A stretch of 64,000 nt of DNA from a virus (IMGVR_UViG_3300022744_000026:1-64000); one strand, 5' to 3'. Counted from the stretch's first letter, positions 25,054-63,624 are shown. Made by a program: numbers and translations. The notes: generated by a model from the sequence alone, not told the origin.

Positions 25054-25073
25054 CGTGACACCACCATTAACGC
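25054..25073 (+). promoter_or_regulatory. Late-type promoter motif (first of 11 copies)
   Basis: CGTGAC-AC-CACCAT-N6-ATG; other CGTGAC copies at 28198, 29980, 37279, 38423, 40036, 48583, 53664, 57130, 63598 (minus strand) and 63605. Confidence 0.75.
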
Positions 25074-25736
25074 ATGGCGACAAAACACCCCCGCAGGGCC
25101 GAGGCTGAGGCCGCAATCCGAGTCCACCTGAGCACGCGCGGCAATGGTGACTGGGAGGCCGTGCTTACGCAATTTCCAGACGTGTCGGCGCCGAGCATGT
25201 GGCGGTGGATCCGCGAGGTAAAGGCGGGCGCACCGGAGGGCGCGCAGCTCAAGACCGCCGTCAGCCGCATCCGCCGGTCGCTCAAGGACGACAAGGTGTA
25301 TCGCACCGAGGAGGCCAGCCAGCAGGCCGTGCGGCACATCGCCGATCAACTGCCGGCGGCGCCGCGGCCGGAGTACATCGCCAGGACCGGGTCAGCCGGC
25401 CTGGAGAACATCGACTTCGTGCGCGAGATCCGGCACCTGTACTCCGACGCCCTGATGCTGCGCGCGTACTGCACAAAGGTCGACGCCGAGACCGGGCAGG
25501 AGAGCATCAAGCAGCCGATGCTGTTCGAAAAGCAGATCGCGCGGCGTGCCAGCCTGATCGAGACCAGCATCAAGACCGTGCAGGAGCTTTGGGACTTGCG
25601 CACGATGCAGGGGTTTTATCAGGCGATCATCGAGGAGATCGGCAAAGAGGCGCCCGATGTCCAGCACCGCATCATGGACAGGTTGCGGGCGCTGAACAAC
25701 GAGCGCGGCATGACGATGTTCACCACGGCGTTCTGA
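25074..25736 (+). CDS. Terminase small subunit (putative)
   Basis: N-terminal HTH-like region (SAPSMWRWI), helical; directly upstream of TerL. Confidence 0.7.
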   Translation: MATKHPRRAEAEAAIRVHLSTRGNGDWEAVLTQFPDVSAPSMWRWIREVKAGAPEGAQLKTAVSRIRRSLKDDKVYRTEEASQQAVRHIADQLPAAPRPEYIARTGSAGLENIDFVREIRHLYSDALMLRAYCTKVDAETGQESIKQPMLFEKQIARRASLIETSIKTVQELWDLRTMQGFYQAIIEEIGKEAPDVQHRIMDRLRALNNERGMTMFTTAF

Positions 25737-25737
25737 C

Positions 25738-27834
25738 GTGCGCGGGGTTGTGCAGAGGCGTAGGGGCCTGCCGGACTACCGCAGCGGCCTGTCGAGCCTG
25801 ATCTCGAAGCTGGAGGAGAAGACCGGCTATCGGGTGGCAAAGGTCGGCATCGAGGCGGGCGTGACGTTCCGCGACTGGTGCGAGGAGCTTGGCCGCAAGG
25901 GCATGAAAGTCGACGGAAAGCCGTTCAAGCTGGACGACCGCCCGGCCATGGCATGGATCTACGATCAAGTGCCCAGCACTGAGGATGAGGCCTACCGCCT
26001 GGTGCTGGTGCTGATGAAATGCGCGCAGGTGGGTTTTACGGTCATGGAGATGCTTGCGTGCATCTACCTGGGCCTGCGCTTCGGGCCGGCAATCGTCGGC
26101 ATGTTCCTGCCGGACATGAACCTCGCCGGCCTGAAGTCGACCGAGCGGTTCATGCCCATCGTGCGCTCCACGCCGAGCGTGCACGAGCTGATGACTCAGG
26201 ACGCGCCGGACGGCAGCGGGCGCAAGCAGGGCGAGGGCAACGTCAACCGCCGCCGCATTGGTGAAGCGCTGTTCGTGTTCAGTTGGACATCTGGCCGGGC
26301 CACCACCGAGTCTGTGCCCATGGACGTCCTGAGCTTCGATGAAGTGCAGGAAATGACGCTGGAGCAGATGGAGAAGACCATCGAGCGCCTGAGCGCCAGC
26401 CCGCTGCGTTTCGTGCTGATGGGGTCGACCGCCAACTGGCCTGATGCCGACATCCACCACTGGTACAAGCGCGGCAGTCGGCGGCGCTTCCATACCCGCT
26501 GCCGCACATGCGGTGTGGCTGAGCCCATCGATGAGTACTTTCCGCAGTGCTTCAAGTTCGATGAGGCCACGGGTGTGCATCGGTACACCTGCCGGGCAGG
26601 GCACGTGATCGATGACCCGCAGGACGGCGAGTGGATCGCCGAAAACCCGGATGCCGACCCGCCGGTGAATCTGGACATCCCCAAGAAAGACCGGCCGCTG
26701 CGGATCCGCAGCATCCACTTCCCGCAGATGCTGAGCCCGACGATCAGCCCGACTGAAATTTGGGACGCCTACCGGTTCGCGGAGTCGATGAAGAACTTCT
26801 TCAACCGCAAGTTGGGGAAGCCGTATCTGGATCCGAGCCAGGTTCCGGTGACGCTGGAGCACCTGCGCGAGGCCGAGCGCCAGGGCATCGCCATGGGCCT
26901 GCAGTGGGAGTCCCGCGGCAAGGGTTGCTTCATGGGCATCGACCAGATGGGCAACTTCAATGTCGTGGTGATCAAGCGTCGGCTGGACGATGGCCGGCAG
27001 GCGCTGGTGCACGCCGAGCTGGTCTACGACGCCGACCCTTTCCAGCGGTGCAGCGCGCTCATGGAGGCATTCGGCGTCTATGCGTGCGTGGTCGAAATCA
27101 ACCCGAACTACAACGACGCGAAGCGCTTCGCCAACCGCCACCCTGGTCGGGTGTTCATCTGCGACAGCTTCGGCAAGGTGGCGGAAGGCATGATCCAGTG
27201 GGGCGACGCCATGAAGCTGGACACCAGCGAAAGGCGCACCAGCGAGGATGCGCGCGACCGCTACACGCTGCGCATGGACCAGTTCAAGTGCATGCAGGTC
27301 AGCATGGCGCGGTTCACGCACACTGACCCACGCACCGGCGCGCCCGCCCCGCTGTGCCTGTTCCCGGACGCGCAGGGGCTGGTGCAGGATGTGGTCGAGT
27401 CAGGCGCCAGGCAGCAAAAGCCAGTCCTGCCGATCGCGTGGCACCACTTCACGAAGACCGCGCTGGTGTCCGAGAAGGACGACGAGACGAACAAGTACAA
27501 GCGCGTCGTCAAGAAAATCGGCATCGACCCGCACTTCAGTTATGCGAACATGCTGTGCGATGTCGCATGGGCCCGCGCGCATGGGACGACGCTTTTCATC
27601 ATGCCCGAGGAGTCGTCCACCATGAGCGCGAAACTGGACAACGACATGGCGAGGCTCGACCTCTCCAAAGTCCCATCCGCCCACGCCGCCCGCGTCGTGG
27701 AGATCATGACCGCCCCGACCGTCACCGGCACCTGCGGCACCTGCACGGCCTACATGGACGGCCAGTGCACCGAGCGAGGCTTCAACGTGGCGGCGCGCGA
27801 CACGGCGTGTGACCTGTACGCGGCTGAGGCGTGA
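25738..27834 (+). CDS. terL: Terminase large subunit, GpA-like
   Basis: KCAQVGFT Walker A variant, SFDEVQEM Walker B, GST coupling motif, Zn ribbon, MGIDQ nuclease Asp, DPHF. Confidence 0.9.
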   Translation: MRGVVQRRRGLPDYRSGLSSLISKLEEKTGYRVAKVGIEAGVTFRDWCEELGRKGMKVDGKPFKLDDRPAMAWIYDQVPSTEDEAYRLVLVLMKCAQVGFTVMEMLACIYLGLRFGPAIVGMFLPDMNLAGLKSTERFMPIVRSTPSVHELMTQDAPDGSGRKQGEGNVNRRRIGEALFVFSWTSGRATTESVPMDVLSFDEVQEMTLEQMEKTIERLSASPLRFVLMGSTANWPDADIHHWYKRGSRRRFHTRCRTCGVAEPIDEYFPQCFKFDEATGVHRYTCRAGHVIDDPQDGEWIAENPDADPPVNLDIPKKDRPLRIRSIHFPQMLSPTISPTEIWDAYRFAESMKNFFNRKLGKPYLDPSQVPVTLEHLREAERQGIAMGLQWESRGKGCFMGIDQMGNFNVVVIKRRLDDGRQALVHAELVYDADPFQRCSALMEAFGVYACVVEINPNYNDAKRFANRHPGRVFICDSFGKVAEGMIQWGDAMKLDTSERRTSEDARDRYTLRMDQFKCMQVSMARFTHTDPRTGAPAPLCLFPDAQGLVQDVVESGARQQKPVLPIAWHHFTKTALVSEKDDETNKYKRVVKKIGIDPHFSYANMLCDVAWARAHGTTLFIMPEESSTMSAKLDNDMARLDLSKVPSAHAARVVEIMTAPTVTGTCGTCTAYMDGQCTERGFNVAARDTACDLYAAEA

Positions 27835-27836
27835 CC

Positions 27837-28202
27837 ATGCGCATCCTAGTCACCGGAGGGCGCTCCTACGCTGACCGCGATGCCGTCTGGTCAGCGCTTG
27901 ACCGTGTGCACGCCAAGCGCGGTCTGACCTGTGTCATCCATGGGGCAGCCACCGGCGCCGATGAGCACGCCAGGGCCTGGTGCATCGCTCGCCGCATTCC
28001 CATGGAGGTCTACCCGGCCAACTGGCGCCCCGTGGTTGGCGGTGGCATCGACCGTAGCGCTGGGCCGCGGCGCAACGCTGACATGCTGGAGCGTGGGCGC
28101 CCTGACGGCGTGGTGGCCTTCCCAGGCGGCACAGGCACTGCCGACATGGTGCGTCGAGCCGAAGCCGCAGGCATCAAGGTGTGGCGCCCAACCGCGGCGT
28201 GA
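27837..28202 (+). CDS. DUF2493/YspA-like SLOG protein
   Basis: ILVTGGRSY, IHGAATGAD, AGPRRNADM, FPGGTGTADMV. Confidence 0.88.
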   Translation: MRILVTGGRSYADRDAVWSALDRVHAKRGLTCVIHGAATGADEHARAWCIARRIPMEVYPANWRPVVGGGIDRSAGPRRNADMLERGRPDGVVAFPGGTGTADMVRRAEAAGIKVWRPTAA

Positions 28203-28217
28203 CGGCATCATGCCCCC

Positions 28218-29852
28218 ATGGCTAACCTGACCCCCACCCCCGGCTGGGACAACGTCCCGCAGCATGAAATCAGCACCGTAGCCATCGGCGGGCCTGGCGG
28301 CACGGCGAATGCGCAGGCGCAGGCGTTGCTGAATCGGCTGGAGGCGCTGCGGGGGACTGCGGCGGGTCAGGGTGGGGCGCTGGTGGGATTGCAGGATGCC
28401 CGGGGGTATTTTGCGACCGACAATGTTGAGGCGGCAACTCAGCTTCTCGGATCGCGCACATCTGCTATCGGCGTCAGCATCACTGATGCGGCGTACGGGG
28501 CTGTGTCTGGCGCCGACTGCACTGCGGCGATCATTGCTGCTGATGCCGCCGTGGCAGCCGCTGGCGGGGGTGTCGTGCTGATCCCGGCGGGGACCTGGAA
28601 GTACAACAGCACCATCTCAAGGTCGACCAATGTGACCTGGCGCGGGGTGTCGTCGCTGGCGTCAAAGCTGCAGTGCACGAATGGCACTGCGCAGATCATC
28701 AACTCTGGTGGGCGCGGTGGCCTAGAAGACCTGTATATCGAAGGCCCTTATCTGACGCAGGCGACTCGTATCGCTGCGGCCTCTACGTCCATCGGCGTGG
28801 TCGATGGTGGTGCAACGATTTGGGTGCGCAATGTCCGTATCAAGTATTTCAAGAAGGGATATTCCAAAACCATTGGTTATTGGTGCGAGTATCACAAACT
28901 GTGGCTGGAGGAAAACGGCACGGGTTTTAGTTGGGATAACACTGGCGCAGATTTTTGCAACCTGATTGCGTTCTACTCTTGCACGTTCCGGCAGAATGAC
29001 CGCAATGGTATTGCAAGCACAGCCGTCAATAACAACACCACCATCAATTACATTGGCTGTGACGTTGAGGCGAACTGCTCTGAAGACCCGGCCACATACC
29101 CGCAGATTGCGATTGGTTTCGCCCGCAATGTGAACTGGTTCGGAGGGTATGCAGAACCAGGAACGGTATCTCCAGCACCTGATTTTTGGGTGTTGTCAAA
29201 TACATCGATCTGGAACATTACAGGGCTATACCTCGGTGGCGCAAGGAAGGCATTTACATCCAGCAGCAACGGTACTGGGACTGGGCGCATCGCCAATGTT
29301 TATTTTGCTGGCGGCACTGCACTCATAACGTCGGCGGTCTACGATTTCCCGTCGTGCTTGAATATCACGGTTTATGACCGCAATACGCACACGGCGGCTA
29401 TCACGCTGGACGGCGCAGGCTCGCAGCGCATCGCCAGCGGTGATCAGTTGGCCACGCGCACGGCTCCGGCTAGCTTCACGCCAGTGCTGTCCGGCACCGG
29501 TACAGCCGGCACGTTTACTTATACGGTACAGGTCGCACGCAGTTCAAAAAACGGCAACATGCGCACGTATGCTGGACGGATCACTATTTCTGCCATTACA
29601 GTAGCGCCGACAGGTAATATTCAGATCAGCCTGCCGTCCACCTGCATTAATGCTACCAATATCAGATATACCGGCGTACTGGATTGCTCAGGTGTCACAC
29701 TGAGCGGTGCAAATACGTATTTCTACGGCCGGATTGATCCGAACACCTCACAGATGACCCTATTCCAGGGCGGCTCGTCGTCCACGGCGCTGCAGGCTGC
29801 AAACATTACAGCCACCTCGCAGATCATCTGGTCGATTACGTACGAGGAGTGA
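28218..29852 (+). CDS. Tail fibre/tailspike with pectate-lyase-like beta-helix
   Basis: Fibre N-terminus (ANL..W..VPQ.E...GG..G.AN.QAQAL); YGA...DCTAAI.AA...GGGVVLIPAGTW; lower GC body. Confidence 0.8.
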   Translation: MANLTPTPGWDNVPQHEISTVAIGGPGGTANAQAQALLNRLEALRGTAAGQGGALVGLQDARGYFATDNVEAATQLLGSRTSAIGVSITDAAYGAVSGADCTAAIIAADAAVAAAGGGVVLIPAGTWKYNSTISRSTNVTWRGVSSLASKLQCTNGTAQIINSGGRGGLEDLYIEGPYLTQATRIAAASTSIGVVDGGATIWVRNVRIKYFKKGYSKTIGYWCEYHKLWLEENGTGFSWDNTGADFCNLIAFYSCTFRQNDRNGIASTAVNNNTTINYIGCDVEANCSEDPATYPQIAIGFARNVNWFGGYAEPGTVSPAPDFWVLSNTSIWNITGLYLGGARKAFTSSSNGTGTGRIANVYFAGGTALITSAVYDFPSCLNITVYDRNTHTAAITLDGAGSQRIASGDQLATRTAPASFTPVLSGTGTAGTFTYTVQVARSSKNGNMRTYAGRITISAITVAPTGNIQISLPSTCINATNIRYTGVLDCSGVTLSGANTYFYGRIDPNTSQMTLFQGGSSSTALQAANITATSQIIWSITYEE

Positions 29853-29999
29853 TCATTGATGACGCACATACTCGACTGGCTCAAGCGATGGGCCGACCTC
29901 ACCATGGGGCGGCCGACTTCTTTCTGTCTCTCAGAGTGTGCGGCATGATCCCGTCGATCCGGCGCTAACCCACTCCCATCGTGACGCTACCCTCCCCCA

Positions 30000-32959: not shown

Positions 32960-33990
32960 AGCGCCCGGCACCCGCCGGGCCATCAAGTCAGCCGGCGTAT
33001 GCCCGTTGACTTGATGGCCCCACATCCAAGGCTTGGCCCCTTGGAGTTCCCAGCGATGGGGAGATACACGAGACACGCTGCCTTATGCGAGTGTGGGGCC
33101 GTCAGCTATCACAGATGCGCCAGCCGGAAAGCCCGGCAACTGCGCGACAAACAGTCCCAAGCCTGGGGCATCTGTGATGGTTGCACGCAGAAATGCGCAC
33201 ATAGACCGACGAGGGAAGGCGTCTGCTGGACGACGCCGGAAGACGATACGCGGATCATCACCGCCCCTGCGACTCGGGTCTCAGTCTTCACCGACCATCA
33301 CCAAATTCCGGACCGCGGCCCACAGCGCGATGGGAATCAAAACAGGCTTTCTGTGGGCGAGCTGAGGCGCGCGAGATAAGCGCCACCGTGAGGCGGACCG
33401 TTAAGTCGTCAACACCTGGGGCAGCCCGGGGCGCGCAGGGGTAGTGCCTGACAAACCACCCGGGGGAAGGGCCCGGGGCCACCGGATTGCGAGCAGCACT
33501 GGCGACTGCAGCAGACTGTAAATCTGTAGCCCCTAGGGGCAACGGGGTTCGACTCCCTGGCAATCCACCACTGACCATCATCACAGCGGGTGAGCGCCTG
33601 CTGCGATGATGGCCGGCGCAGTCTTGGCCTCTGCGCATCGAGCCGCACACCCCGTGCGCGCCCGCGGTAAGCACCCTGCCTCATGGGATCGGTCGTCAAC
33701 AGCCGTTGTAACGGATGCCGCTGGGCCTACGGCCGGAGTGCATCGCCGCAGTCTACGTAAGCGGCACAATCAACAAGCGGTGGGTAATCGGCCTAGAGTC
33801 GTCATCATCCCCCACTGGCCGGGAAACCGGCTGACGCGAATAGCCGATCTGCGGCGGTCTCGCGCCACAAGGTCGCCGCAGACTTCAGCGCCACCCCCGG
33901 GTGGCGTTGTCGTTTGTAACGTGCATCCTCCTCAGCGCCCCGTGGCGCCGTTGCCTACCCCCGCGCCTAGGCGGGTCACAAGCCCGGCCT
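32960..33990 (+). ncRNA. Candidate large structured ncRNA(s) flanking the tRNA
   Basis: Consecutive 10-21 bp stems with G-U pairs and GNRA loops; no convincing ORF. Confidence 0.6.
33484..33570 (+). tRNA. tRNA-Tyr(GTA), class II, encoded CCA
   Basis: GGATTGC/GCAATCC acceptor stem plus ACCA; GCAGA-CTGTAAA-TCTGT anticodon arm; long variable arm; TTCGACT T-loop. Confidence 0.92.
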
Positions 33991-37095: not shown

Positions 37096-37283
37096 CCACC
37101 GACACCTTCCTCCACCAAGCCGAGTCCTTCCTCACCCGCCACGGCCGCCGCGCCTGGTGGCAGGTGATGGGTGACCACGGTGTCGATACGCTAGCTGGTG
37201 CGATCGAGAAGCGGGACAGGATCGCGGAGACGATGCGCGATATCGACGCCATCACCAGCGGGCTTCCCGGCCCCGAGGCGTGA
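37092..37283 (+). CDS. Hypothetical protein
   Basis: ATGA-coupled 63-aa ORF. Confidence 0.5.
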   Translation: MTTDTFLHQAESFLTRHGRRAWWQVMGDHGVDTLAGAIEKRDRIAETMRDIDAITSGLPGPEA

Positions 37284-37298
37284 CCCCACACTCCCCGC

Positions 37299-40040: not shown

Positions 40041-40075
40041 CCCCACACTAGGCCCCGCACCAAGCGAGGCCACGC

Positions 40076-45607: not shown

Positions 45608-45620
45608 GGGGATCTGCTGG

Positions 45621-47117: not shown

Positions 47118-47239
47118 TGCCTTCATCCTGCGGCTCGTAGCCGTCTTCGTCCTTCGGATCGGGGTCCATGTGTGCCTCCATGTTGTGTGGGTGCAGTGTA
47201 GCGATTTTGATGATGTTGTGCGGCTTGTTACAAGTTGAC

Positions 47240-48567: not shown

Positions 48568-48602
48568 TGCCGCTAATGCCATCGTGACCCCATCATGGCG
48601 CG

Positions 48603-53132: not shown

Positions 53133-53146
53133 GCTAAATTGCGACC

Positions 53147-53401
53147 ATGACCCACCCACGCCAACACCTAGCCGACCTCGCCGCCCTGTCCCACAAGACC
53201 GAGCAGGCCGAGCGCAACATCCTGGCGCGCGCCGAGTCGGCGCTTGCGCGGTGCCAGTCCGACATTGACCGGCTGCGGCCGGCTGCGCTGGTGCCTGGCG
53301 CCAGCGAGGCGATGGAGTATCAGCAGGCGGTGATGGACCGCGGGCGGCTGCAGGTGGTGATTGCGCAGGCGAGGAAGCTGCTGGAGAAGGCGAATGGCTG
53401 A
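53147..53401 (+). CDS. Hypothetical coiled-coil protein
   Basis: TAAATT-N6-ATG. Confidence 0.55.
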   Translation: MTHPRQHLADLAALSHKTEQAERNILARAESALARCQSDIDRLRPAALVPGASEAMEYQQAVMDRGRLQVVIAQARKLLEKANG

Positions 53402-53651
53402 TCGGTGCACGCGGTGTGGCGGGGAGATGAGGCCGGGTGTCGCCATGGGGCAGACGTACACGGGGTCGGCTGACTTCGCTGGCGGCGAGGTGGTGACGAT
53501 GTCGCCGGGTGGGCCTGGGCGGCTGGTGGCGTGCCTGAAGTGTGTGGGTTGCGGGCACTCGGTGTCGGCGCCCGCTGGGATGGTCAAGTCGGGGCCGGCG
53601 GGGTGCTGGGATGCGCCTGAGCTGGGGGCAGGGCGCTGGAGCGCCGAGTAA
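53394..53651 (+). CDS. Zn-ribbon protein
   Basis: CTRCGGEMRPG...KCVGCGHS. Confidence 0.6.
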   Translation: MADRCTRCGGEMRPGVAMGQTYTGSADFAGGEVVTMSPGGPGRLVACLKCVGCGHSVSAPAGMVKSGPAGCWDAPELGAGRWSAE

Positions 53652-53684
53652 CCGCCCCTGCGTCGTGACCGCACATTTGCGGTC

Positions 53685-54608
53685 ATGCACGATGCATCCA
53701 GCCTGCCCGACTTCATCAGCATCTCGGGCTTGTTCAAGGCGATGCCCCAGTCCGAGGGTGGGCAGCGCTTCGTGTACTTCGAGGCATCGAACGAAGGTCT
53801 GGACCAGCAGAACGAGATCGTGAGTGCGAAAGCGCTGGGTGAGTCGAAAGACTACTACCTCCGCTACGGCAACATTGACATAGATCATTTGACCCTGACC
53901 GGCCGCCCGAACCCGGCGAAGGGCTATCCCGGCATCCCGGACTACATGAGCTACGAGATTGGCGTGCCCGTTGAGGTGCGCCAGTCCGGCAAGACGACGT
54001 TCGTCAAGAGCCAGATCAAGTCCGGCGAGGGCCCTGCGGCCGAGAAGGCGAACCAGTTCTGGAACAGCCTGATGACGAACCCGCCGACCCGCTGGTATCC
54101 CAGTGTCGGCGGCGCCATCGACCCCGAAGGGCGGATTGTCGAACTGGACCCGGCCACCGGCGCCAAGAAGGTGATCATCACCAAGGTGCGCTGGACGAAC
54201 ATCGGCGTGAGCCTCACGCCCGTCAACCAGCATGTCCCCGGCTGCGCCACGGTGCCGATCGGCGCCTTCGCCAAGTGCCACACGCCTGGTGGCGGATTAG
54301 ACCTGACCAAGGCCCTGACCGCCGGCTACGGCTCCGATTCCGCCACCCTCACCGGCGGCGCAGCCCTGCGCATGCAGTCGCTCGACGGCGCCGTGCGCGA
54401 CACCACCGTGCCCACGCCCCAATACTGGACATGGCGCGACAAGATGGCCGGCGCCATTCGTGACGGCAGCATTCGCATACCGAACGCTGAGGGCTTGATT
54501 GCCCACAGCGCCACTACCTACGGCATGCCCCTGTCCGATGCCGCGGAATACGTGGAGCGCTTTTTGCGCGACCTGAAACACGGACTATCTCGACGGAGAA
54601 ACGCATGA
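53685..54608 (+). CDS. Prohead maturation protease
   Basis: ASNEGLDQQNEIV, NIDIDH, PSVGG, LTPVN; directly upstream of scaffold and capsid genes. Confidence 0.8.
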   Translation: MHDASSLPDFISISGLFKAMPQSEGGQRFVYFEASNEGLDQQNEIVSAKALGESKDYYLRYGNIDIDHLTLTGRPNPAKGYPGIPDYMSYEIGVPVEVRQSGKTTFVKSQIKSGEGPAAEKANQFWNSLMTNPPTRWYPSVGGAIDPEGRIVELDPATGAKKVIITKVRWTNIGVSLTPVNQHVPGCATVPIGAFAKCHTPGGGLDLTKALTAGYGSDSATLTGGAALRMQSLDGAVRDTTVPTPQYWTWRDKMAGAIRDGSIRIPNAEGLIAHSATTYGMPLSDAAEYVERFLRDLKHGLSRRRNA

Positions 54609-55261
54609 GCGGCAACTTTGACGCCCTTCTGGCCGAACTGAATGACGAAGTGGCTGGCATGGCCAAGGCGATGCCGGCTGGTGACGATCTGGACGACGAG
54701 GACGAAGACAGCAACACCGTCGACACGGCCGACACCGACAAGAAGGTGATGGCTGCTGGTGACGGCGACGCCGACGACGCTGGCGGCGATCCCGATGGCG
54801 ACGAAGACGACAAGCCGATGATGGGCAAGAGCATGACCGTCGAAATCGACGGCAAGCAAGTCGAAGCCATCGACGGCACCGAACTGGTGAAGTCGCTGAT
54901 GGGCCAGGTCGAGCAGTTGGGCGGCAAGCTCGGCGCTACCGAAGCCAGCCTCGCCAAGGCTCTGTCGGACACGCTGGCCGTGGTGAAGGGCCAGGGCGCC
55001 GTCATCAAGTCGCTGCAGGAGACCGTCACCAAGCTGGCCGCTGCCGGCCGTGGCCGCAAGTCGGTCGTCACCGTCGCCGACCCGGCGCCGATGGCGAAGT
55101 CGGCCGGCGCCGCCGCCCCGCTGCAGGGCCGTGAACTCATGGCCAAGGCCCTTGCTGCACAGCAGGCCGGACGCCTGACCGGATTGGACGTCGCCCGCGT
55201 CGAGTCTGCAATCAACCAGGGCGCGCCGGCTCCTGCCGACGTTCTTTCTCGCATCAACTGA
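54605..55261 (+). CDS. Scaffold protein
   Basis: Acidic N-half, coiled coil, many K-A/K-S sites; lies between protease and capsid genes. Confidence 0.7.
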   Translation: MSGNFDALLAELNDEVAGMAKAMPAGDDLDDEDEDSNTVDTADTDKKVMAAGDGDADDAGGDPDGDEDDKPMMGKSMTVEIDGKQVEAIDGTELVKSLMGQVEQLGGKLGATEASLAKALSDTLAVVKGQGAVIKSLQETVTKLAAAGRGRKSVVTVADPAPMAKSAGAAAPLQGRELMAKALAAQQAGRLTGLDVARVESAINQGAPAPADVLSRIN

Positions 55262-55273
55262 CCAGGAGGCCCC

Positions 55274-56734
55274 ATGGCACTCGAAGACATTGTGAACAGC
55301 TCTGTGCCCGGCGGCTCGACCGTGATGGGCGAGATGGGCGACGCTGACCTGCAGGCGCTGCACAAGGCGCTGACGGCCGGCTACGGTTCGGACACCAACG
55401 GCCTGACGGGTGGCTCTGCCTTCCGCATCCAGTCGCTGGACACCACGCTCAAGGCGACGGTGCAGGACAACAGCCACTTCGCGCTGTTCAATGCCCTGAG
55501 CAAGCCGCGTGCGACCGCGGTGGTCGATGAATGGACCGAACAGGATTCCATCGGCGGCTTCCTGGGCGGCACGTTCAACGATCAGGACGGTACGGCGCAG
55601 GAAACGAATGGTTCCTACACCCGCCGGACCGCGAACGTGAAGTACCTGATGACGTACCGCAAGGTGCCCATCGTGCTGCAGCAGCAGAGCAACATCACCG
55701 ACGTGGTCGCCATCGAGACGGTCAACGGCACCAAGCAGCTCCTGACCGACATCGAGCACGGCCTGTTCGAGGGCGATTCGTCCATCCTGCCGAAGTCGTT
55801 CGACGGCATCTATGCGCAGATGGCCGGCTTCAATGGTGGCGCGAACATCTTCGACATGGCTGGCCAGCCGCTGAACACCATCGACCCGATCAGCCGCGCT
55901 GCTGAACAGGTCTTCGGCTACGGCTCGTTTGGCAAGCTGACCCACCTGTACCTGCCGCCGGCCATCCAGTCGGACCTGAATGCAGGCCTGGACCCCGCCT
56001 TCCGCGTCGCGCTGGACAACAGCCCGAACAGCGTGATGCTGGGCACCCACGTGTCGGGCATCCGCACCAGCTATGGCAACATCGCCACCACGACGGACGT
56101 TTTCGTGCGCGACGAGCGCATGAAGAAGCCCTTCGAAGTGCGCAATGCGACCCACCTGGCTGTGTCGGCTGCGAACATCGCGTTCAAGCCTGCCTCGTTC
56201 ACGGCTGTGGCTGGCGTCGGCGCCAGTGATTCCGCCTGGGGTTCGACCCATGCCGGCAACTACTTCTACGCCGTGACCGGCATCAACCACAACGGCGAGA
56301 CCGCCGCTCTGGTGTCGGCCAGCGTGACCGTGGCGGCCACCCAGCAGGTGACCATCACCATCACGCAGTCGGCCAGCGGCACGGAAACCGGCTACGTCAT
56401 CTACCGCAGCCGCAAGAACGGCACCAGCGCACTGACCGACCTGCGCGAGATGACCAAGGTCGCCAAGGCCGGCGCCACCACCACGTTCATCGACAAGAAT
56501 CGCGTGATCCCGGGCTCGACCCGCGCCTACGCGCTGAACCTGTCGCCGAGCGATGGCAGCATCGACTGGAAGCAGTACCTGCCGATGATGAAGATCCCGA
56601 TGGCCGCGGTGCAGTCGCCGATCATCCCGTGGCTGCAGATGATCTGTGGCTACATGCGCGTGACCAAGCGCGCGCACCATGTTGTCTTCGACAACGTCGT
56701 GCCCAGCGGCGCGAGCTGGAAGCCGTTCGTCTAA
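55274..56734 (+). CDS. Major capsid protein (SPO1/Twort-like type, with FN3-like insertion)
   Basis: KALTAGYG...GSAFRIQSLD, IEHGLFEGDS, FDGI. Confidence 0.88.
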   Translation: MALEDIVNSSVPGGSTVMGEMGDADLQALHKALTAGYGSDTNGLTGGSAFRIQSLDTTLKATVQDNSHFALFNALSKPRATAVVDEWTEQDSIGGFLGGTFNDQDGTAQETNGSYTRRTANVKYLMTYRKVPIVLQQQSNITDVVAIETVNGTKQLLTDIEHGLFEGDSSILPKSFDGIYAQMAGFNGGANIFDMAGQPLNTIDPISRAAEQVFGYGSFGKLTHLYLPPAIQSDLNAGLDPAFRVALDNSPNSVMLGTHVSGIRTSYGNIATTTDVFVRDERMKKPFEVRNATHLAVSAANIAFKPASFTAVAGVGASDSAWGSTHAGNYFYAVTGINHNGETAALVSASVTVAATQQVTITITQSASGTETGYVIYRSRKNGTSALTDLREMTKVAKAGATTTFIDKNRVIPGSTRAYALNLSPSDGSIDWKQYLPMMKIPMAAVQSPIIPWLQMICGYMRVTKRAHHVVFDNVVPSGASWKPFV

Positions 56735-56813
56735 GACGGCGGCGTCAGGGGTGACCCTGTCCTGACATGGCGGGGCCCTAGCGGCCCCGCTTCACCGATC
56801 ACCGGAGACTGAA

Positions 56814-57113
56814 ATGCGCCTTGTCTGCACCATCCCCACCGCCACCAGCCCGATCAACGGCCACGACTTCGACGGCCAGCCCGGCAACTTGGTGTCGGTC
56901 AACGACATCCCCGATGAAGAAGCCGCGATCTTCCTGACCGTGCCCGGTTACTTCGAGTTCGGCGCCGAGCCGGCCAGTGCCGCCCAGCAGGATGACACCG
57001 CCACGATTGACGCCCTGCGCGGCGAGTTGTCGTCATATGGTGTCGAGCCCAAGAGCACCTGGCGCGCCGCCCGCCTGCAGGCCGAGATCGCCAAGGCCAA
57101 GGCCAGCGCCTGA
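56814..57113 (+). CDS. Small head-associated protein with HeH-like C-terminus
   Basis: GGAG SD; LRGELSSYGVEP...W...RLQAEI. Confidence 0.6.
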   Translation: MRLVCTIPTATSPINGHDFDGQPGNLVSVNDIPDEEAAIFLTVPGYFEFGAEPASAAQQDDTATIDALRGELSSYGVEPKSTWRAARLQAEIAKAKASA

Positions 57114-57169
57114 CCTCGCCTGGCGGCGTCGTGACCCGACACTAAGGTCTACCGACCAAAGGAGCCGCA

Positions 57170-57349
57170 ATGGCGCTTGCCGAAGGCCAACGGGTGCGCC
57201 TTGTCGCACCCGTGATCGAGGGGCCGATCCTCGACACCCGCTACAACAAAGATGCCGGCGAGCTGGAGCATCTGGTGTCGTTCACGGCGCCCGATGGCGA
57301 TGCCGCCGAGCGGTGGTTTCTGCAGTCCCAACTGGAGCCCACCGAATGA
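57170..57349 (+). CDS. Small hypothetical protein (absent from the ORF track)
   Basis: AAGGAG SD, late motif upstream, MALAEGQRVRLVAPVIEG...RWF, ATGA overlap with the next gene. Confidence 0.6.
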   Translation: MALAEGQRVRLVAPVIEGPILDTRYNKDAGELEHLVSFTAPDGDAAERWFLQSQLEPTE

Positions 57350-57909
57350 GCCGCTACGCTGAAGCCGCCAATGCCGCTGACGGCGCCACGGCGGGCGTCA
57401 TCCGCAACTCTGGCATGGCCGAGCAGGCGCATGCCGAGGGCTACTACACCGCCACCTGCTACGGCCCGGATGGCGCGGTGAAGTGGACGGACGACATCCA
57501 CAATCTGGTGCTGACGGCCGGCAAGAATCACGCCCTGGACAACTACCTCGCCGGCAGCGCCTACACTGCGACGTGGTTCATGGGCCTGGTGGGCTCGACC
57601 AGCTTCACGGCCATCGCCGCGGCGGACACCGCTGCATCGCACGCCGGCTGGACCGAGGAGACCAACTACAGCGCTGGCGCGCGCCCTACCGCGGCGTTCT
57701 CCGCTGCGGCCTCTGGCGCCAAGGCGCTGAGCGCCGCCCTGACCTTCACCATGTCGGCTGGCGCCACCGTCAAGGGCGCATTCTTGGTCAGCAACTCCAC
57801 CAAGGGCGGCACCACGGGCACCATCTACTCGGCGGGCCTGTTCACCGGTGGCGACAAGGTGCTGGCATCTGGCGACTCGTTGGCGATCAGCTACTCGGCG
57901 TCGCTGTAA
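57346..57909 (+). CDS. Virion fibre/structural protein
   Basis: KWTD..HNLV..GKNHALD...WFMGL; small-residue-rich. Confidence 0.7.
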   Translation: MSRYAEAANAADGATAGVIRNSGMAEQAHAEGYYTATCYGPDGAVKWTDDIHNLVLTAGKNHALDNYLAGSAYTATWFMGLVGSTSFTAIAAADTAASHAGWTEETNYSAGARPTAAFSAAASGAKALSAALTFTMSAGATVKGAFLVSNSTKGGTTGTIYSAGLFTGGDKVLASGDSLAISYSASL

Positions 57910-57925
57910 CACGCTGCTGGGCATG

Positions 57926-57960
57926 AAAGCCGCGACTGGCTGGGCTGGCGCGGCTTTTTG
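57926..57960 (+). terminator. Intrinsic terminator
   Basis: AAAGCCGCG...CGCGGCTTT running into a T tract. Confidence 0.65.
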
Positions 57961-57976
57961 TATTTGAGGGCTGGGT

Positions 57977-59008
57977 ATGACTACGCTGTTTGCTTGTGGT
58001 GAGGATGTTGGGTTCGCCGTGGTGGGAGCGGGGACTGCGGTTGATACTGCCACTACGGCTGCTCGGCGGACGTCGTTTTCGCGTTGTGCGCTGGCATGTG
58101 GAAGTGGTGGCACCCCTTCAAACGGGGACGGTTGGCTCGGTGCGTTTTCCTCCACGTCGAACTCGTTCTGGTTTACGGCCCGTTTCTACACGAATAACAA
58201 CGTCAACTTGGTCGCTGGTTTCCGCTTGATGAATTTCAGGGATGGCACGACATCAAGGATCGAGCTGCGGAATAAAACTACTGGAACTGGTGATATCGGA
58301 ATATACAAGGTCACCGCCGCTGGCGTTGCGACCCTTTTGGCGACGGCATCAACAAACATAACTAGTACTACGTTATTCAGGATTGATATCCAGATAAACT
58401 ACAGTGCATCTGGTTTTGTAAGACTGTACTATAATGGTGGGCTAGTTGCAGACACTGGCGTCGTTGACGTTACTACTGACTCCGCGACGAATTTGAGTTC
58501 GTTTGTGTTGAGTGTGCCGCATAACATTTCAGGAAGAATCGGATATTGGTCCGAAATCATCGTCACCGACGTCGACACCCGCAGCCTGAGCCTGATCACC
58601 GTCGCCCCACTCGCAGCCGGCGCCGCGAACACCTTCTCGACCCCGGGTGCAGTCGGCAACATCAACGAGGTGACGATCAACGACACCACGCTGATCAGCA
58701 GCGCCACGGCCAACCAGATCGCCGAGTACACCGCTGACACGAGCCTGATCACCTCGGCTGGCGGCAACCCGGCCGTCCGCGCGGTGTCCACGTACAGCCG
58801 CAGCCAGCGTGGCGCCACGGGGCCGCAGAACATGCAGCACGTGGTGCGCGTGGGCGGCACGGACTTCACCAGCGCGACCAAGAGCCTGATCACCTCCTTC
58901 GGCCAGGTGTCGCACGTCTTCGAGCTGAACCCCGCCACGTCAGCCGCTTGGGCCATGTCCGACATTACGACGGCAGGCTTCAACATCGGCGTGAAGTCCA
59001 TCGCGTAA
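57977..59008 (+). CDS. Beta-sandwich (lectin/LamG-like) virion protein
   Basis: Thr/Ser/aromatic beta pattern; C-terminal NPATSAAW; lower-GC central segment. Confidence 0.55.
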   Translation: MTTLFACGEDVGFAVVGAGTAVDTATTAARRTSFSRCALACGSGGTPSNGDGWLGAFSSTSNSFWFTARFYTNNNVNLVAGFRLMNFRDGTTSRIELRNKTTGTGDIGIYKVTAAGVATLLATASTNITSTTLFRIDIQINYSASGFVRLYYNGGLVADTGVVDVTTDSATNLSSFVLSVPHNISGRIGYWSEIIVTDVDTRSLSLITVAPLAAGAANTFSTPGAVGNINEVTINDTTLISSATANQIAEYTADTSLITSAGGNPAVRAVSTYSRSQRGATGPQNMQHVVRVGGTDFTSATKSLITSFGQVSHVFELNPATSAAWAMSDITTAGFNIGVKSIA

Positions 59009-59014
59009 CGCGCC

Positions 59015-60268
59015 ATGGATGTCTCAAAGTTCCTAGCGTTTGCGGTCGCGGGCCCGGCCGACACGGCTGTCACCGTCAGCAAGCTAGCGACTTTTGCCGT
59101 TGTCGGCCCGGCTGACACCGACACCACCGTCAGCAAGTTCGTCGCCTTCGTGGTGGCTGACTTCTCCGCGCCGCAGACGGATGGTGTCACGGAGGCTGCA
59201 TCTGCTGCTGATGCCGTCTCGGCGATTCAGGTGCTGCTGGCGTCGGTCAGCGAGTCCGCGACGGCGAGCGATACGGCATCCGGCGTCCAGTCCGCGGCCG
59301 GCGACCTGACTGAGGCGGGTACTGCGGTCGATACGCAGTCGACGTCCTCTGTCGTGCCTGGGCAGGTGTCGGAGGCGGCTGGCGCCGCTGACGCGGCCAC
59401 GGCGGCCAACGCGCTCGGGGTCAGTGTTGCCGAGACCGCCAGTGCGGCCGATGTGCCGTCAGCGGCTCAGACCACGCCGGCCGCGCTGGCTGAGACCGCG
59501 GCAGCCACCGACCTGCTGTCGACCGTCCTGGCGGCTGTTGCGGCACTGTCTGAGGCGGCAGCGTCGGCGGACGCCGTGACGGCTGGCCTGCGGCTGTCCG
59601 TGCTGGTGTCGGAGGCGGCTGCTGCGACTGACGCCGTTGCGGCGGCGTTTGCAGCCACGGCCAGCCTCGCTGAGTCGGCCGGCGCGGCAGACGCGCAGAG
59701 CGCCGCCCAGCAGCTCAACGTGGTCATTCTGGAGGCCGGCGCTGCGGATGATCTGGTGTCGGGCGTCCAGGCGGCCATTGCGGCGCTGAGTGAAGCGGCT
59801 GCTGCCGGCGACGTGGCGGCCGGCGCTGCGACTCTGGTGACGTCGGTGGCCGAGCCCGTGGCTGCGCTGGATGATGCCGCGGCGGTGCTGCTGGCTGTTG
59901 CTGGCGTGGACGAGCCCGCCGCGGCCTTGGACGACGCCAGCGGCGAGGCGATCGAGAACGCCAGCCTGACCGAGCAGGCGCAGTCATCCGACGACTGGTC
60001 TGGCGTGCGGCATCTGGTGGCGGCCTTGGCAGAGCAGGCGGCTGCTGGTGACCTGATCATCATCATCAGCGATCTGCCTGCCCACGGCGACCGCGCCTTC
60101 ACCATCACCGACACGCCCGGCGCGCGGGTGATGGTGGCGACGACGCCTGGCGGCGGGCGGGTGTTCCGCGTCGACACGCCAGACGGCGGCCGGGTTCTGG
60201 TGGTCGAGCCGGCAGCGCCGAGAAATTTCATCGTCGGCCCGCGTCGTGTGTTCATCATCAAGCCCTGA
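59015..60268 (+). CDS. Repeat-built fibre protein
   Basis: About 15 x 20-aa [VL]xExAxAxD repeats, plus terminal 18-aa and roughly 11-aa repeats. Confidence 0.7.
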   Translation: MDVSKFLAFAVAGPADTAVTVSKLATFAVVGPADTDTTVSKFVAFVVADFSAPQTDGVTEAASAADAVSAIQVLLASVSESATASDTASGVQSAAGDLTEAGTAVDTQSTSSVVPGQVSEAAGAADAATAANALGVSVAETASAADVPSAAQTTPAALAETAAATDLLSTVLAAVAALSEAAASADAVTAGLRLSVLVSEAAAATDAVAAAFAATASLAESAGAADAQSAAQQLNVVILEAGAADDLVSGVQAAIAALSEAAAAGDVAAGAATLVTSVAEPVAALDDAAAVLLAVAGVDEPAAALDDASGEAIENASLTEQAQSSDDWSGVRHLVAALAEQAAAGDLIIIISDLPAHGDRAFTITDTPGARVMVATTPGGGRVFRVDTPDGGRVLVVEPAAPRNFIVGPRRVFIIKP

Positions 60269-60280
60269 CCTAGAGGCACC

Positions 60281-61405
60281 ATGGCAACGCAACTACAAAC
60301 CGACAACCGCGGCCTGTGGGCTGAGCAAGACAAAGACGAGTTCCTCGACTACTCGATGGACTGGTCGGACTGGCTCGACGTCGGCGACACGATCGCCACC
60401 AGCGTGTGGGATGACGTGCCTGGCTTGGTGCTGAGCCAGTCGTCGCACTCCGACACCCTGGCAAAGATTTGGGTGCAAGGCGGCGCGCCGACGACGTGGT
60501 ACGCGGTGGTCAACCGGATCACCACGGCGATGGGGCGCACCGGTGACCGCGCGTTCCGGCTGTTCATCACCGATCAGGCGCCCACCCTGGCGGACATGAG
60601 TTCGGCGCTGTTCCCGAACTTGCCCGCAGCGGTTGACCAACTCAAGCGCGACCGGCTGGTGCTGGTGGGGCAGTCCATCGGGCTGTCCGTGGCGGACATG
60701 ACCACGGATTTCCTGCGCGGCAAGCTGCTGGCTGCTGAGGCGAAAGCCCAGCGCGAACTGCGCTGCTACTTCGCGCCGACTGTCATCATCCCTGAAGATG
60801 CGCCGCAGGACGAGATTGACGCCCTGGTGACCGCCGGCACGCGCTACGCGCAGGAGCCGGCCTACGACTACGAGCCGGGCTGGCTCATGCCGGACAGCTA
60901 CGGCTACCTCGCGGCCCGCCAACGGCCGATCATCAGCGTGCAGTCGATCCGGCTGGTGTACCCAGTGCCGACGCGCTCGGTGTTCGAGATCCCCATCGAC
61001 TGGGTGCGGCTCGACCGCAAGTATGGGCAGATCAGGCTGGTGCCGAGTTCGTCGGCGTTCCTGGCGCCGCTCTCGGTGTTCCTGCTGCCGGCAGTCGGCG
61101 CTGGCGGCCGGGCCGTGCCGAACATGATCCAACTCCGGTACACCGCCGGCCTGTCCAATGCTGCGCGCGACTTCCCTGACCTGATCGACGTCGTCATGAA
61201 GATGGCGGCCGTCAGTATCATTGAGGACGCCATGATGCCCGGCAGCGGCAGCATCTCGGCGGATGGTCTGTCGCAGTCGCTGAGCGTGGATGTGTCGAAG
61301 TATCAGGACACCATCGACCGGCTGATGAACGGCCCGCCAGGCAGCAACGGCGGCCTTCGCACGGCGATCCATGGTGTGGTGGTTGGGTTCATGGGGGGTG
61401 CGTGA
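60281..61405 (+). CDS. Head-tail adaptor with N-terminal fibre-adaptor-like domain
   Basis: DEFLDYSMDWSDWL..GDTI N-domain; RPIISV, YTAG, SISADGLSQS adaptor motifs. Confidence 0.7.
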   Translation: MATQLQTDNRGLWAEQDKDEFLDYSMDWSDWLDVGDTIATSVWDDVPGLVLSQSSHSDTLAKIWVQGGAPTTWYAVVNRITTAMGRTGDRAFRLFITDQAPTLADMSSALFPNLPAAVDQLKRDRLVLVGQSIGLSVADMTTDFLRGKLLAAEAKAQRELRCYFAPTVIIPEDAPQDEIDALVTAGTRYAQEPAYDYEPGWLMPDSYGYLAARQRPIISVQSIRLVYPVPTRSVFEIPIDWVRLDRKYGQIRLVPSSSAFLAPLSVFLLPAVGAGGRAVPNMIQLRYTAGLSNAARDFPDLIDVVMKMAAVSIIEDAMMPGSGSISADGLSQSLSVDVSKYQDTIDRLMNGPPGSNGGLRTAIHGVVVGFMGGA

Positions 61406-62037
61406 TGCGACTCAACCCGGCGGCGTTCAACGCGCACTTGAGCCACATGGGGCAGCGCGTGCTGTGGCAGCGCGCGACGGCGTGTCCGTGCGTCGAGACG
61501 CACAGCGGCGCAGCCAAGCCTGGGTGCCCGCTGTGCCACGGCAAGGGGCAAATTTACGGTGCCGAAGTCGCCACGGTCGTCGGCGTGGCGAGCCAGAAGG
61601 TGGTGAAGGCTTGGGCGCAGTTCGGGATGTACGAATCTGGTGACGCGATCCTCGTCATTCCTAGCGACTCGCCGATGTACGACGCCGGGCGATTCGACAA
61701 AATCACGATGCTCAATGGATCGGACAGGTTCTCGCGCGTGCTGGTGCGTGGTCGCAATGACAGGCTGTTCGAGCGCGCGCTGTCCGTCGACCGCGTGTTC
61801 TGGCTGAACACGGCTGGCGATGCGGTGGTCGAAGGCGGGATTCCGGCTGTGGCGCAAGACGGGTCGCTGACGTGGGCGGCAGGCGAGCCGCCGGCTGGCA
61901 CCAAGTACACGATCGAAGGGCAGCGGCAGCCGACGTACTATGTGTTTGACAATATGCCATCGGACCGCAACGAGCACCAAGGCGCGCTGCTGCCGAAGAA
62001 CTTGGTGGCCAGGCGCTGGGACGTGATGAGTAGGTAG
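61402..62037 (+). CDS. Neck/head-closure protein
   Basis: W..AT.CPC...CPLCHGKG, FDKIT. Confidence 0.65.
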   Translation: MMRLNPAAFNAHLSHMGQRVLWQRATACPCVETHSGAAKPGCPLCHGKGQIYGAEVATVVGVASQKVVKAWAQFGMYESGDAILVIPSDSPMYDAGRFDKITMLNGSDRFSRVLVRGRNDRLFERALSVDRVFWLNTAGDAVVEGGIPAVAQDGSLTWAAGEPPAGTKYTIEGQRQPTYYVFDNMPSDRNEHQGALLPKNLVARRWDVMSR

Positions 62038-62049
62038 TATAATAGATAC

Positions 62050-62757
62050 ATGACTAACGCCGGAATTTATCTGATTACTGTAGATAGGCCAAACAATCTG
62101 CCTCTTTACTATATTGGTCAATCTCAGAATATAAGCTTAAGATTTAACCAGCATAAATCATCATTGCGCAACAGCAAACACCACAACAAGCGCTTGCAAC
62201 TTGCCATTAACAAATATGGCTTTGATTCATTGAGTTTTGTTGTACTTGAAACGTGCTGCGTTGAAGAACTCGATGAGAGAGAGCATTGGTGGCTCGAACA
62301 GGTGGTTGGATTTGACCGGGTTTGTAATTATTGTATTGACCCGGCAGCCCCATTAAGAGGACGTAAATTCTCTGATGAACATCGAAGTAAGATAGCGGCG
62401 GCATTATCTGGTGAGCGGCACTACAGCAGGTCAAGAGGCGCTATGCCAATCGAGCATCGCCAAGCCATATCGCGCGGCGTGAAGGGGAAAACCAGATCAG
62501 AAGAAAGTCGGCGCAGGATATCCAATTCCACTAGGGGTGAGGCTAACCCTATGTTTGGCTTGAGCGGTGACAAAAGTGCGAGATCTCAAGCGGTACGCGG
62601 TACGCATTCAATAACCGGTGAAATCGTAGAATTCGAAAGCATGAACCTGGCTGAATTGTCTGGATTTATTCAGGAATGCATTTCTAGGTGTTGCGCTGGA
62701 AAACAAAAACTCCATAGCGGTTTTGCTTGGGAGCGCATTAACCGCCACGCTTCATAG
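62050..62757 (+). mobile_element. Free-standing GIY-YIG homing endonuclease with NUMOD3/NUMOD1-like repeats
   Basis: GIYLI...YYIGQS...RF..H; SDEHRSKI, SEESRRRIS, NPMFG, ISRCC.GK; markedly lower GC. Confidence 0.88.
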
Positions 62758-63577
62758 CTTCAGCAAAGACGTTTTCCGCCAGCGGCTTCATTTTCTCAAC
62801 AACACTTCTGGCAATGTGTTGCCCTGGCTGCGGTGGAATAATCCAGCCATTTGAGCCCTCCATGAGCACACGGAACGTCATGTACTGGCTGTAGTTTTTC
62901 CCGCCCATGCTGGTGTCGAACCTCACCATGCCCTCATAACGGCTGTGCTGCTTGGGCAGTCCCACCAGCTTCTCACCCCACTGGTACAGGTTGCGCGGCA
63001 CCATCACATGCTGCCGCGTGGCCTGGTTGAACAGGAATGGCGTCTGGTGCTTCTTCCCCATCACCTGGGTGCCCCACCTGGGGTGCAGTGAAGTCACCTC
63101 GCCAGCCGGGCGCTGGCCCTGGCCGGCGACCGTGCTGGCCTTCAGCAGCTTCGCGGCATCGTAGACCGCATCAGGCATGGCCTTCGCATGCGCCTCATTC
63201 CCTGGCGTGTTGTGCCTGAACGGGATGATGAGGAACCGGCGACCGTCCTTCGTCCGGCGCACCTTGCTGCTGGTGTCGAGATACTTCTTAAGGTCGCGCG
63301 CCGGTCGGCCGTCGTCAATCTCCTTGGCGTACTTGTATTCGCTCCAGACGAGGCCTTCAAAGTCGCCGGTCATCTTGGCCTGGATGCTGGCCGCGTAGGC
63401 GTCTTTCTCACCAGACCACAGCTTGGCGCGCTGCACCGACTCCATCCAGCTTGACTGCGTGGCAGTCACCACGGCGCGCACGGCCTGATTCAACCTCGGC
63501 AGCACGGCAGCATTGATGATCGCGCCGGCCTGGGCGCCGACGTCTGTCAGGTCGACGCGGATCTGGAATTGGCTCAT
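62738..63577 (-). CDS. Neck/tail-completion-type virion protein (inverted orientation)
   Basis: YA..I..GRP..DLK, LIIPFRH, YMTFR..WI.P; own late motif upstream fixes the start at 63577. Confidence 0.65.
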   Translation of the reverse strand: MSQFQIRVDLTDVGAQAGAIINAAVLPRLNQAVRAVVTATQSSWMESVQRAKLWSGEKDAYAASIQAKMTGDFEGLVWSEYKYAKEIDDGRPARDLKKYLDTSSKVRRTKDGRRFLIIPFRHNTPGNEAHAKAMPDAVYDAAKLLKASTVAGQGQRPAGEVTSLHPRWGTQVMGKKHQTPFLFNQATRQHVMVPRNLYQWGEKLVGLPKQHSRYEGMVRFDTSMGGKNYSQYMTFRVLMEGSNGWIIPPQPGQHIARSVVEKMKPLAENVFAEAMKRGG

Positions 63578-63624
63578 GCGTAGCATCCTGCCGTCACGCC
63601 TCGTCGTGACCGCACCATTCACTC

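Follow-up and report, generated by a model that had tools for sequence, protein, structure and literature searches.

A compact 16-bp element that recurs ahead of the late genes in the virus record IMGVR_UViG_3300022744_000026 very probably acts, in this phage and in the clade to which it belongs, as a late promoter without a −35 element, giving rise mostly to leaderless mRNAs, with an upstream box that is probably recognized by a phage-supplied factor. We analysed the first 64 kb of this IMG/VR record (positions 1–64000; 64,000 nucleotides, hereafter designated the window); the record as a whole is linear, comprises 78,097 bp with 65.5% G+C, and is ~85% complete. That the element has promoter function is highly probable from its sequence context, and a message starting at the ATG is unusual for phages of Proteobacteria. 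A preliminary description of the same DNA had proposed a promoter of mostly leaderless messages, a proposal now supported by the position and orientation of the element, its rigid spacing to the ATG, the pattern of Shine-Dalgarno (SD) sequences, conservation, clade specificity, use in front of tRNA genes, and, weakly, by RNA data.

Positions 1–21.5 kb carry replication and recombination genes (RdgC, helicases, exonuclease, cytosine methylase, SSB, and primase), and from 25 kb on the packaging, head, cargo, and tail genes lie on the plus strand, except for a short leftward island at 45.3–47.3 kb. The nearest cultured relatives are ~86–95-kb myoviruses with portals 49–66% identical to that of the window, namely Bordetella phage PHB04 (genus Phabquatrovirus), Pseudomonas phages Dolphis, Jeremy, and Touem01, Aeromonas phage ST4, and Yersinia phage fHe-Yen8-01, together with Enterobacter phage phiT5282EW and Escherichia phage ECML-606-1; Morganella phage Mecenats66 is more distant. 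Hosts of this large clade, whose phages are ~90-kb myoviruses, are found in Pseudomonas, Bordetella, E. coli, Yersinia, Aeromonas, and Morganella.

Distribution, composition, and register of the element

Matches to the pattern CGTGACNNBANNNT number 12 in the window, where 1.38 ± 1.19 are expected and none of 100 shuffles gave as many, and 15 in the whole record (14 copies on the plus strand and one on the minus strand) against a single match of the reversed control pattern; three copies, 67089, 72822, and 77373, fall beyond the window. By itself, the hexamer CGTGAC is under-represented (39 vs 57 expected), and because it is not enriched, the signal resides in the composite element. Every one of the 15 copies has the orientation of the gene that follows it, and 14 fall at gene boundaries of a genome in which intergenic DNA is very scarce. 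A scan of the whole record found no copy in the early 25-kb region. The preliminary description had listed 11 copies in the window, every one at its correct coordinate, but its count was one short: the twelfth, at 54459 inside the protease gene, is the only copy away from a gene boundary.

A consensus was derived from 123 distinct sites, collected from the window genome, 36 IMG/VR loci retrieved via the portal protein, and the first 50 kb of Dolphis. The extended form, (G)T-CGTGA(C/T)-N2-YAnnmT, consists of a GTCGTGAC box, two bases, and a minimal −10 box, 16 bp in all; at the two successive positions preceding CGTGA, G is present in 89 and T in 98 of the 123 sites, and the hexamer reads Y-A-Y-(A/C/G)-(A/C)-T. 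With A at −11 and T at −7, and with the ATG 6–7 nt past the T, the hexamer is of the sigma-70 type, and the box lies at −22 to −15 relative to the predicted start. The fixed A and T after the box, which the preliminary description had pointed out, were re-examined with GTCGTGAC octamers from five complete clade genomes, without imposing the hexamer: among 32 octamers, A occupies +9 in 30 and T occupies +13 in 29, both being present in 28, which supports the coupling of box and hexamer. Comparison with PHB04 and Dolphis also revealed the box variants CGTGAT and CGTGAG, and T-tracts occur directly 5′ of the motif in only 17 of 135 sites.

No conserved −35 hexamer was found 16–18 bp upstream of the −10 box among the 123 sites, and in 44001–64000 the sigma-70-type −35/−10 consensus is absent (0 vs 2.9 expected). 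The canonical extended −10 promoter (TGnTATAAT) is similar in being independent of a −35 element and in making extra contacts just 5′ of the hexamer; it differs in that the TG at −15/−14 is not seen in the 123 sites, where the two bases before the hexamer (−14/−13) are variable, mostly G/C, and the conserved bases lie at −22 to −15. Of the earlier designation as a phage-specific extended −10 promoter, the phage-specific promoter is therefore retained, and 'extended −10' in its canonical sense is not.

The distance from the element to the start codon is nearly constant. In 11 of the 15 copies the ATG follows CGTGAC after 14 nt (15 nt in two cases), that is, at +20/+21. Nine of these are in the window, at 25054, 28198, 29980, 37279, 38423, 48583, 53664, 63598 (minus strand), and 63605, exactly the nine for which this spacing and the lack of an SD sequence had been claimed beforehand, and the other two are at 72822 and 77373. 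All 11 genes start with ATG and lack an SD sequence, and most of these ATGs are the first possible start of a long open reading frame (ORF) with a biased third-position G+C content (GC3). In the other four copies (40036, 54459, 57130, and 67089) the predicted transcription start precedes the ATG by 20–126 nt, and each leader carries a GAGG/GGAG SD sequence; two of them, 40036 and 57130, with 20-nt leaders containing GAGG and AAGGAG, respectively, had already been recognized as the longer-leader cases. Genes without the motif have ordinary SD sequences. This restriction of SD sequences to the leader-bearing copies is the pattern expected if transcription starts ~7 nt past the conserved T. Among the 123 sites the ATG stands at +20 in 59, at +21 in 10, and at +22 in two, and a C directly precedes the ATG in 43 of those 59, forming the favoured pyrimidine-purine start dinucleotide. 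Judging from this register, transcription probably begins on the A of the ATG at most copies.

The register also bears on gene annotation. Upstream of the annotated starts of Dolphis gp15 (14482) and gp25 (23748), leaderless ATGs occur at 14320 and 23688 in exact register with box variants, so placed that 14320 and 23688 are probably the actual starts and the deposited ones are too short.

Conservation and transcriptional role

When portal orthologs were gathered by protein similarity alone, 31 distinct upstream regions were obtained; 28 contain CGTGA(C/T), which in 25 has the leaderless register, and their flanking sequences are unrelated. Across the clade, indeed, the motif stays at orthologous genes as the flanks diverge freely. 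PHB04 and Dolphis both have promoters at the equivalents of the portal, MuF-like, protease, and 1509-aa genes, of one baseplate gene, and of the divergent pair, the last of which is also kept in ECML-606-1 and the genome G003. When 2.9 million viral contigs of IMG/VR were scanned with the pattern GTCGTGACNNYANNNTNNNNNCATG, 79 new loci among the matches listed were examined; proteins of the clade are encoded in 67, and 52 show the motif where an ortholog of one of a recurring small set of genes begins. The element is thus a signature of this phage lineage and not of a host, which argues for a phage-encoded reader.

The use of the element in front of genes that are not translated shows at which level it operates. 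In three low-GC loci (0.41–0.44; L227:19615–19864, L230:12484–12733, and L234:8074–8397), which were fetched solely for encoding a homolog of a 179-aa protein discussed below, the motif lies 2–10 nt before a tRNA-Asn/Ala(/Thr) cluster. It therefore acts in transcription, and a purely translational role is ruled out.

Two freshwater metatranscriptomes from different studies contain parts of the phage, and their contigs were compared with 44001–64000. The RNA contigs in this interval cover only the scaffold gene, the major capsid gene, and the 57170 region (54487–57368). The leftmost contigs, one from each study, start at 54487 and 54493, 8 and 14 nt past the start predicted at 54479 for the intragenic copy, and there is no RNA cover over 53685–54486 in the protease gene, though DNA runs do cover that gene. 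Another RNA contig starts at 57165, 15 nt past the start predicted for the 57130 copy. The other promoters in the interval have no RNA cover, at a depth too low to be informative. The contig starts are a weak but independent hint that the intragenic copy 54459 is active.

Promoters and operons of the late region

The 12 promoters assigned in the window are described below in map order, on the plus strand unless stated otherwise; the leaderless starts are those predicted from the register. The terS promoter (25052–25067; box 25054–25059, −10-like hexamer CACCAT) serves a leaderless ATG at 25074. Immediately 5′ of its box are three exact copies of TTGATAG (25026, 25033, and 25046) and a TTGACAG at 25015, and in PHB04, TTGAGAC repeats flank the terS promoter on both sides; repeats of this type may represent a packaging-initiation site or a regulator site. 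Also in the packaging operon, directly 3′ of the large terminase gene, is a YspA/SLOG-family gene (27831–28202; PF10686, E 1.5e-20).

The second promoter (28196–28211; −10-like CATCAT) precedes the leaderless ATG at 28218 of a 544-aa gene (28218–29852), a low-GC stretch (0.59) with a promoter of its own. This gene has no Pfam or PHROG match and no tblastn match in four relatives; it looks recently acquired, and the label 'tailspike' given to it earlier is unverified. The portal promoter (29978–29993; −10-like TACCCT) is followed by a leaderless ATG at 30000, and amid the genes of the portal operon a tRNA-Tyr (GTA) gene is located at 33484–33570, with no promoter motif of its own nearby.

Leaderless ATGs at 37299 and 38443 follow the promoters of the MuF-like minor head gene (37277–37292; orthologous sites at 34449 in PHB04 and 6470 in Dolphis) and of the Acb1 + ART-PolyVal gene (38421–38436). 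For the 1667-aa polyvalent protein (promoter 40034–40049), the predicted start at 40056 would give a 20-nt leader with GAGG ahead of the ATG at 40076, and the 1509-aa helicase-domain virion protein (promoter 48581–48596; orthologous site at 25654 in PHB04) has a leaderless ATG at 48603. The preliminary description had assigned the polyvalent genes to the virion regulon; each of the polyvalent or cargo genes at 37299, 38443, 40076, and 48603 indeed has its own motif promoter, and they belong to the same regulon because of these promoters.

The prohead protease promoter (53662–53677) has a 15-nt spacing to the ATG at 53685, and its orthologous sites are at 20517 in PHB04 and at 8005 in Dolphis, where the gene is annotated as capsid maturation protease. 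The promoter inside the protease gene (54457–54472; predicted start 54479) would provide a 126-nt leader to the scaffold gene (54605), followed by the major capsid gene (55274). Next, the promoter of a 59-aa gene and the head-completion genes (57128–57143; predicted start ~57150) supplies a leader with AAGGAG to the ATG at 57170. Finally, two promoters stand back to back as the preliminary description had reported, with GTCACG at 63593–63598 and CGTGAC at 63605–63610 separated by 6 nt: one (63585–63600, minus strand) serves the leftward gene 62738–63577 from its ATG at 63577, and the other (63603–63618) serves the rightward tail operon from a leaderless ATG at 63625.

Recognition of the box and relation to known late promoters

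A six-frame search of the record detected no sigma domain (PF04542 or PF08281), and PF04542 was likewise not detected in the five complete relatives, so that the earlier statement that no sigma factor is evident holds for the window and extends to these genomes. T7-type RNA polymerase (PF00940) gave no match in the five relatives, but the positive-control genomes gave no match either; no single-subunit RNA polymerase is present in the annotations of Dolphis and PHB04, and no polymerase is among the large virion proteins, which are of the polyvalent or helicase kinds. Since no phage sigma factor or RNA polymerase gene is recognizable, transcription is attributed to the host core RNA polymerase. 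Among known activators, the Ogr_Delta zinc finger of P2-type late activation (PF04606) was absent from the six-frame search of the record, and P1 Lpa (150 aa) has no homolog in the five clade genomes by tblastn (best E 1.8) and no such PHROG match. Searches of ten ORFs (21951–25018 and 45621–47330) against Pfam and PHROGs returned nothing beyond a metallopeptidase-like protein and families without known function, and the protein Atlas returned only 'hypothetical' clusters.

Apart from structural and replication genes, four genes are present in all relatives compared: those for an 81-aa helix-turn-helix (HTH) protein, for a 333-aa recombination-module protein without known function, and for the products of 21981–22520 and 22517–22783. 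The last two, both on the plus strand, encode a 179-aa Cys-rich protein and an 88-aa protein with two zinc sites. They open a rightward operon behind an AT-rich control region, and the start of the second gene overlaps the stop of the first in every genome examined, both genes being present in 10 of 10 genomes checked. A sigma-70-type −35/−10 promoter is located upstream of this operon. The control region itself (21540–21950) separates a leftward KilA-N gene from the rightward zinc-protein genes and contains a palindrome with a 15-bp stem (21722–21754), GAATGAATGAATG and AGACATATA repeats, and sigma-70-like promoters on both strands.

Several observations associate this pair with the box. In a set of 50,697 phage records, only the nine clade phages carry the 179-aa gene, and its family comprises 972 clusters in metagenomes. 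Loci picked only for a 179-aa homolog contain 140 co-oriented motifs, vs 24 on the opposite strand and 33 for the control. Natural fusions join the 88-aa and 179-aa domains in both orders (P0147, P0136, P0086, and P0110), and two longer homologs (P0053 and P0079) have N-terminal extensions with weak MarR/HTH_11 (winged-helix) matches below the family cut-offs, a lead only. The 179-aa protein was modelled with confidence (predicted local distance difference test, pLDDT, 84) as a mixed alpha/beta zinc protein with no solved analog and no match above Z 2.7. The model of the 88-aa protein (pLDDT 91) shows two zinc sites and a ribbon weakly like those of polymerase-associated factors (Elf1 and TFIIS; Z ≤ 5), and its Pfam matches are generic zinc ribbons below threshold. 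We propose tentatively, with somewhat less than even confidence and from sequence evidence, that the zinc-protein pair is the reader of the box; that it constitutes a new promoter-specificity module, retargeting host RNA polymerase to GTCGTGAY-N2-(−10) promoters, is more tentative still. Of the three candidate activators named previously, those at 21981 and 22517 are this conserved, clade-specific pair, but the third, at 23366, is not conserved in relatives, and the winged-helix-like ORF 23366–23815 is accordingly unlikely to be the reader.

A different reader is conceivable, namely a cryptic phage sigma-like protein, too divergent for Pfam, that recognizes the entire 16-bp element without a separate activator, as T4 gp55 does on TATAAATA. 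Box and hexamer are held rigidly 2 nt apart (28 of 32 octamers), as would suit a single contiguous reader, and phage sigma factors such as gp55 escape standard profiles. However, Sigma70_r2 gave no signal in six-frame searches of the record or of the five complete relatives, nor did r4_2 in the record, the small clade-wide genes outside replication are only the zinc-protein pair, the 81-aa HTH protein, and the 333-aa protein, and the 179-aa protein is modelled as a mixed alpha/beta zinc fold rather than as a helical sigma-2 domain; this explanation is thus unlikely. Still less probable is recognition by the host holoenzyme alone, with a primary or stationary-phase-type sigma reading a strong, −35-independent promoter and no phage factor involved. 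The A−11/T−7 signature and the frequent C at −8 or −13, as in RpoS-type −10 boxes, would agree with it, but the box is invariant over hosts from Enterobacterales to Burkholderiales, the scan of 2.9 million contigs yields, among the matches listed, almost only the clade, the motif is missing from the phage's own early region, and the structural and lysis genes would be left without temporal control. Most improbable of all is an action on RNA, as a translation-initiation or processing signal in polycistronic late transcripts: the fixed distance to the ATG, the lack of an SD sequence, and a partial complementarity of GUGAU/C to the GAUCAC segment of the 16S rRNA tail beside the anti-SD (tail sequence quoted in PMC9503643) would fit, but copies with 20–126-nt leaders bring their own SD sequence, the divergent boxes are only 6 nt apart, the motif precedes tRNA genes in relatives, the conserved A and T at −10-type positions have no RNA role, and pairing with 16S rRNA needs an ATG within a few nt, not 14. 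Pairing of GUGAY with the 16S tail was rejected as the function on the grounds of this spacing and of the tRNA-driving copies.

The reading as a leaderless late promoter with a phage-supplied reader has to be set against several points that weigh on the other side. Leaderless status is derived from the distance between hexamer and ATG, and the RNA evidence consists of low-depth assembled contigs that cannot define 5′ ends. The intragenic copy 54459 is absent at the orthologous place in PHB04 and Dolphis, and ~1–2 chance matches of the pattern are expected per genome. Leaderless mRNAs are generally poorly translated in gamma-proteobacteria. In line with this, although the box persists in E. coli-type members (ECML-606-1 and a 96-kb IMG/VR genome), usually as GTCGTGAT, most of their copies have leaders of 9–64 nt, several with an SD sequence, and the portal gene of ECML-606-1 has a leader of 23 nt; lower-GC members have fewer leaderless copies (39% vs 60%), a difference that is not significant (p = 0.06). 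As for the reader, the link between pair and box is co-occurrence in one lineage, with no member separating them, and the folds of the two zinc proteins are unlike any known DNA-binding or sigma fold (Z < 3 for the larger protein and, with generic zinc ribbons, ≤ 5 for the smaller).

With the element taken as a late promoter without a −35 element, the following mechanism is envisaged. The hexamer would be a sigma-70-family −10 element, with its near-invariant A at −11 and T at −7, and the box at −22 to −15 would stand in for the −35 element. Transcription would start 7 nt past the conserved T, mostly on the A of the ATG, giving an mRNA without leader or SD sequence; where the start falls further upstream, the leader would carry a normal SD sequence. 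The −10 element is probably read by the host primary sigma factor and the box by a phage protein made earlier in infection, for which the translationally coupled zinc-protein pair, encoded behind a sigma-70-like promoter, would be the best candidate. In this manner ~15 promoters would split the 53-kb late region into short units for packaging, portal, cargo proteins, protease, scaffold and capsid, head completion, tail, and baseplate.

Among known late promoters, the Lpa-dependent ones of P1 come closest in architecture, although the present element does not appear to belong to them. P1 has 11 late promoters per genome (PMC10695390). Like the clade phages, P1 is a myovirus (~93 kb, with headful packaging) whose several late promoters combine a −10 hexamer with a short conserved upstream box and no −35 element, and whose activator gene is expressed from a sigma-70 promoter. 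LPpac, ATGTGACTT-N4-TACCCT, shares the GTGAC core and has the same hexamer as the portal promoter described here, and LPhot is AAGTTACTT-N9-AATAAT in the P1 record. These two of the 11 P1 late promoters, to which the box comparison applies, have a 9-bp inverted-repeat box (AAGTTACTT / ATGTGACTT), annotated as '−22 region', 4–9 nt from the hexamer, whereas the clade has an 8-bp GTCGTGAY box exactly 2 nt from it. P1 differs further in that its late mRNAs have leaders, LPpac lying 35 nt upstream of pacA, and in its activator Lpa, without homolog in the five clade genomes (tblastn E > 1).

In the Thermus phage Lalka27a, ~16 densely spaced late promoters without a −35 element have a class-specific −10 sequence, TAGGGT, and a single conserved upstream C at −25, include divergent pairs, and give mostly leaderless transcripts, with a putative phage factor (bioRxiv 10.64898/2026.04.20.719267, where phiYS40 is also cited). 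Its portal is 35% identical to that of the window. The logic is the same, but the motif is another, and the Thermus host routinely uses leaderless mRNAs, whereas the clade infects Proteobacteria; none of the Thermus phage records yielded a homolog of the 179-aa protein. The late promoters of T4 likewise consist of a single compact element near −10 without a −35 element, served by a small phage-encoded pair that binds RNA polymerase, the T4 late system comprising the sigma factor gp55, the co-activator gp33, and the sliding clamp. They differ in their element, TATAAATA, with nothing at −22 to −15, and in late mRNAs with leaders; no similarity to gp55 or gp33 was seen, though no profile search aimed at them was made. 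We found no description of the present signal in the literature on the clade phages, on leaderless late promoters, or on the octamer, and the single clade genome paper found contains no promoter analysis. Collectively, the element is best described as a strongly conserved, clade-specific late promoter without a −35 element, from which most virion operons are most likely transcribed as leaderless mRNAs.

For a widespread and barely studied group of ~90-kb phages, with members cultured on E. coli, Pseudomonas putida, Yersinia, and Bordetella, the element yields a full and testable map of transcription, and where gene callers overlook a start codon that has no SD sequence, the promoter register corrects the annotation. 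Leaderless expression of major virion genes would, moreover, not be confined to phages of Thermus or Actinobacteria. The promoter is short, portable, and probably factor-dependent, and together with a two-gene candidate activator it could be reconstituted in E. coli, which could reveal a new mode of RNA polymerase redirection. If the proposed function of the zinc proteins is true, this pair may control late, largely leaderless transcription in a very large assemblage of Proteobacteria phages, most of them uncultured, a wide reach that follows from the more than 900 metagenome sequence clusters in the 179-aa family.

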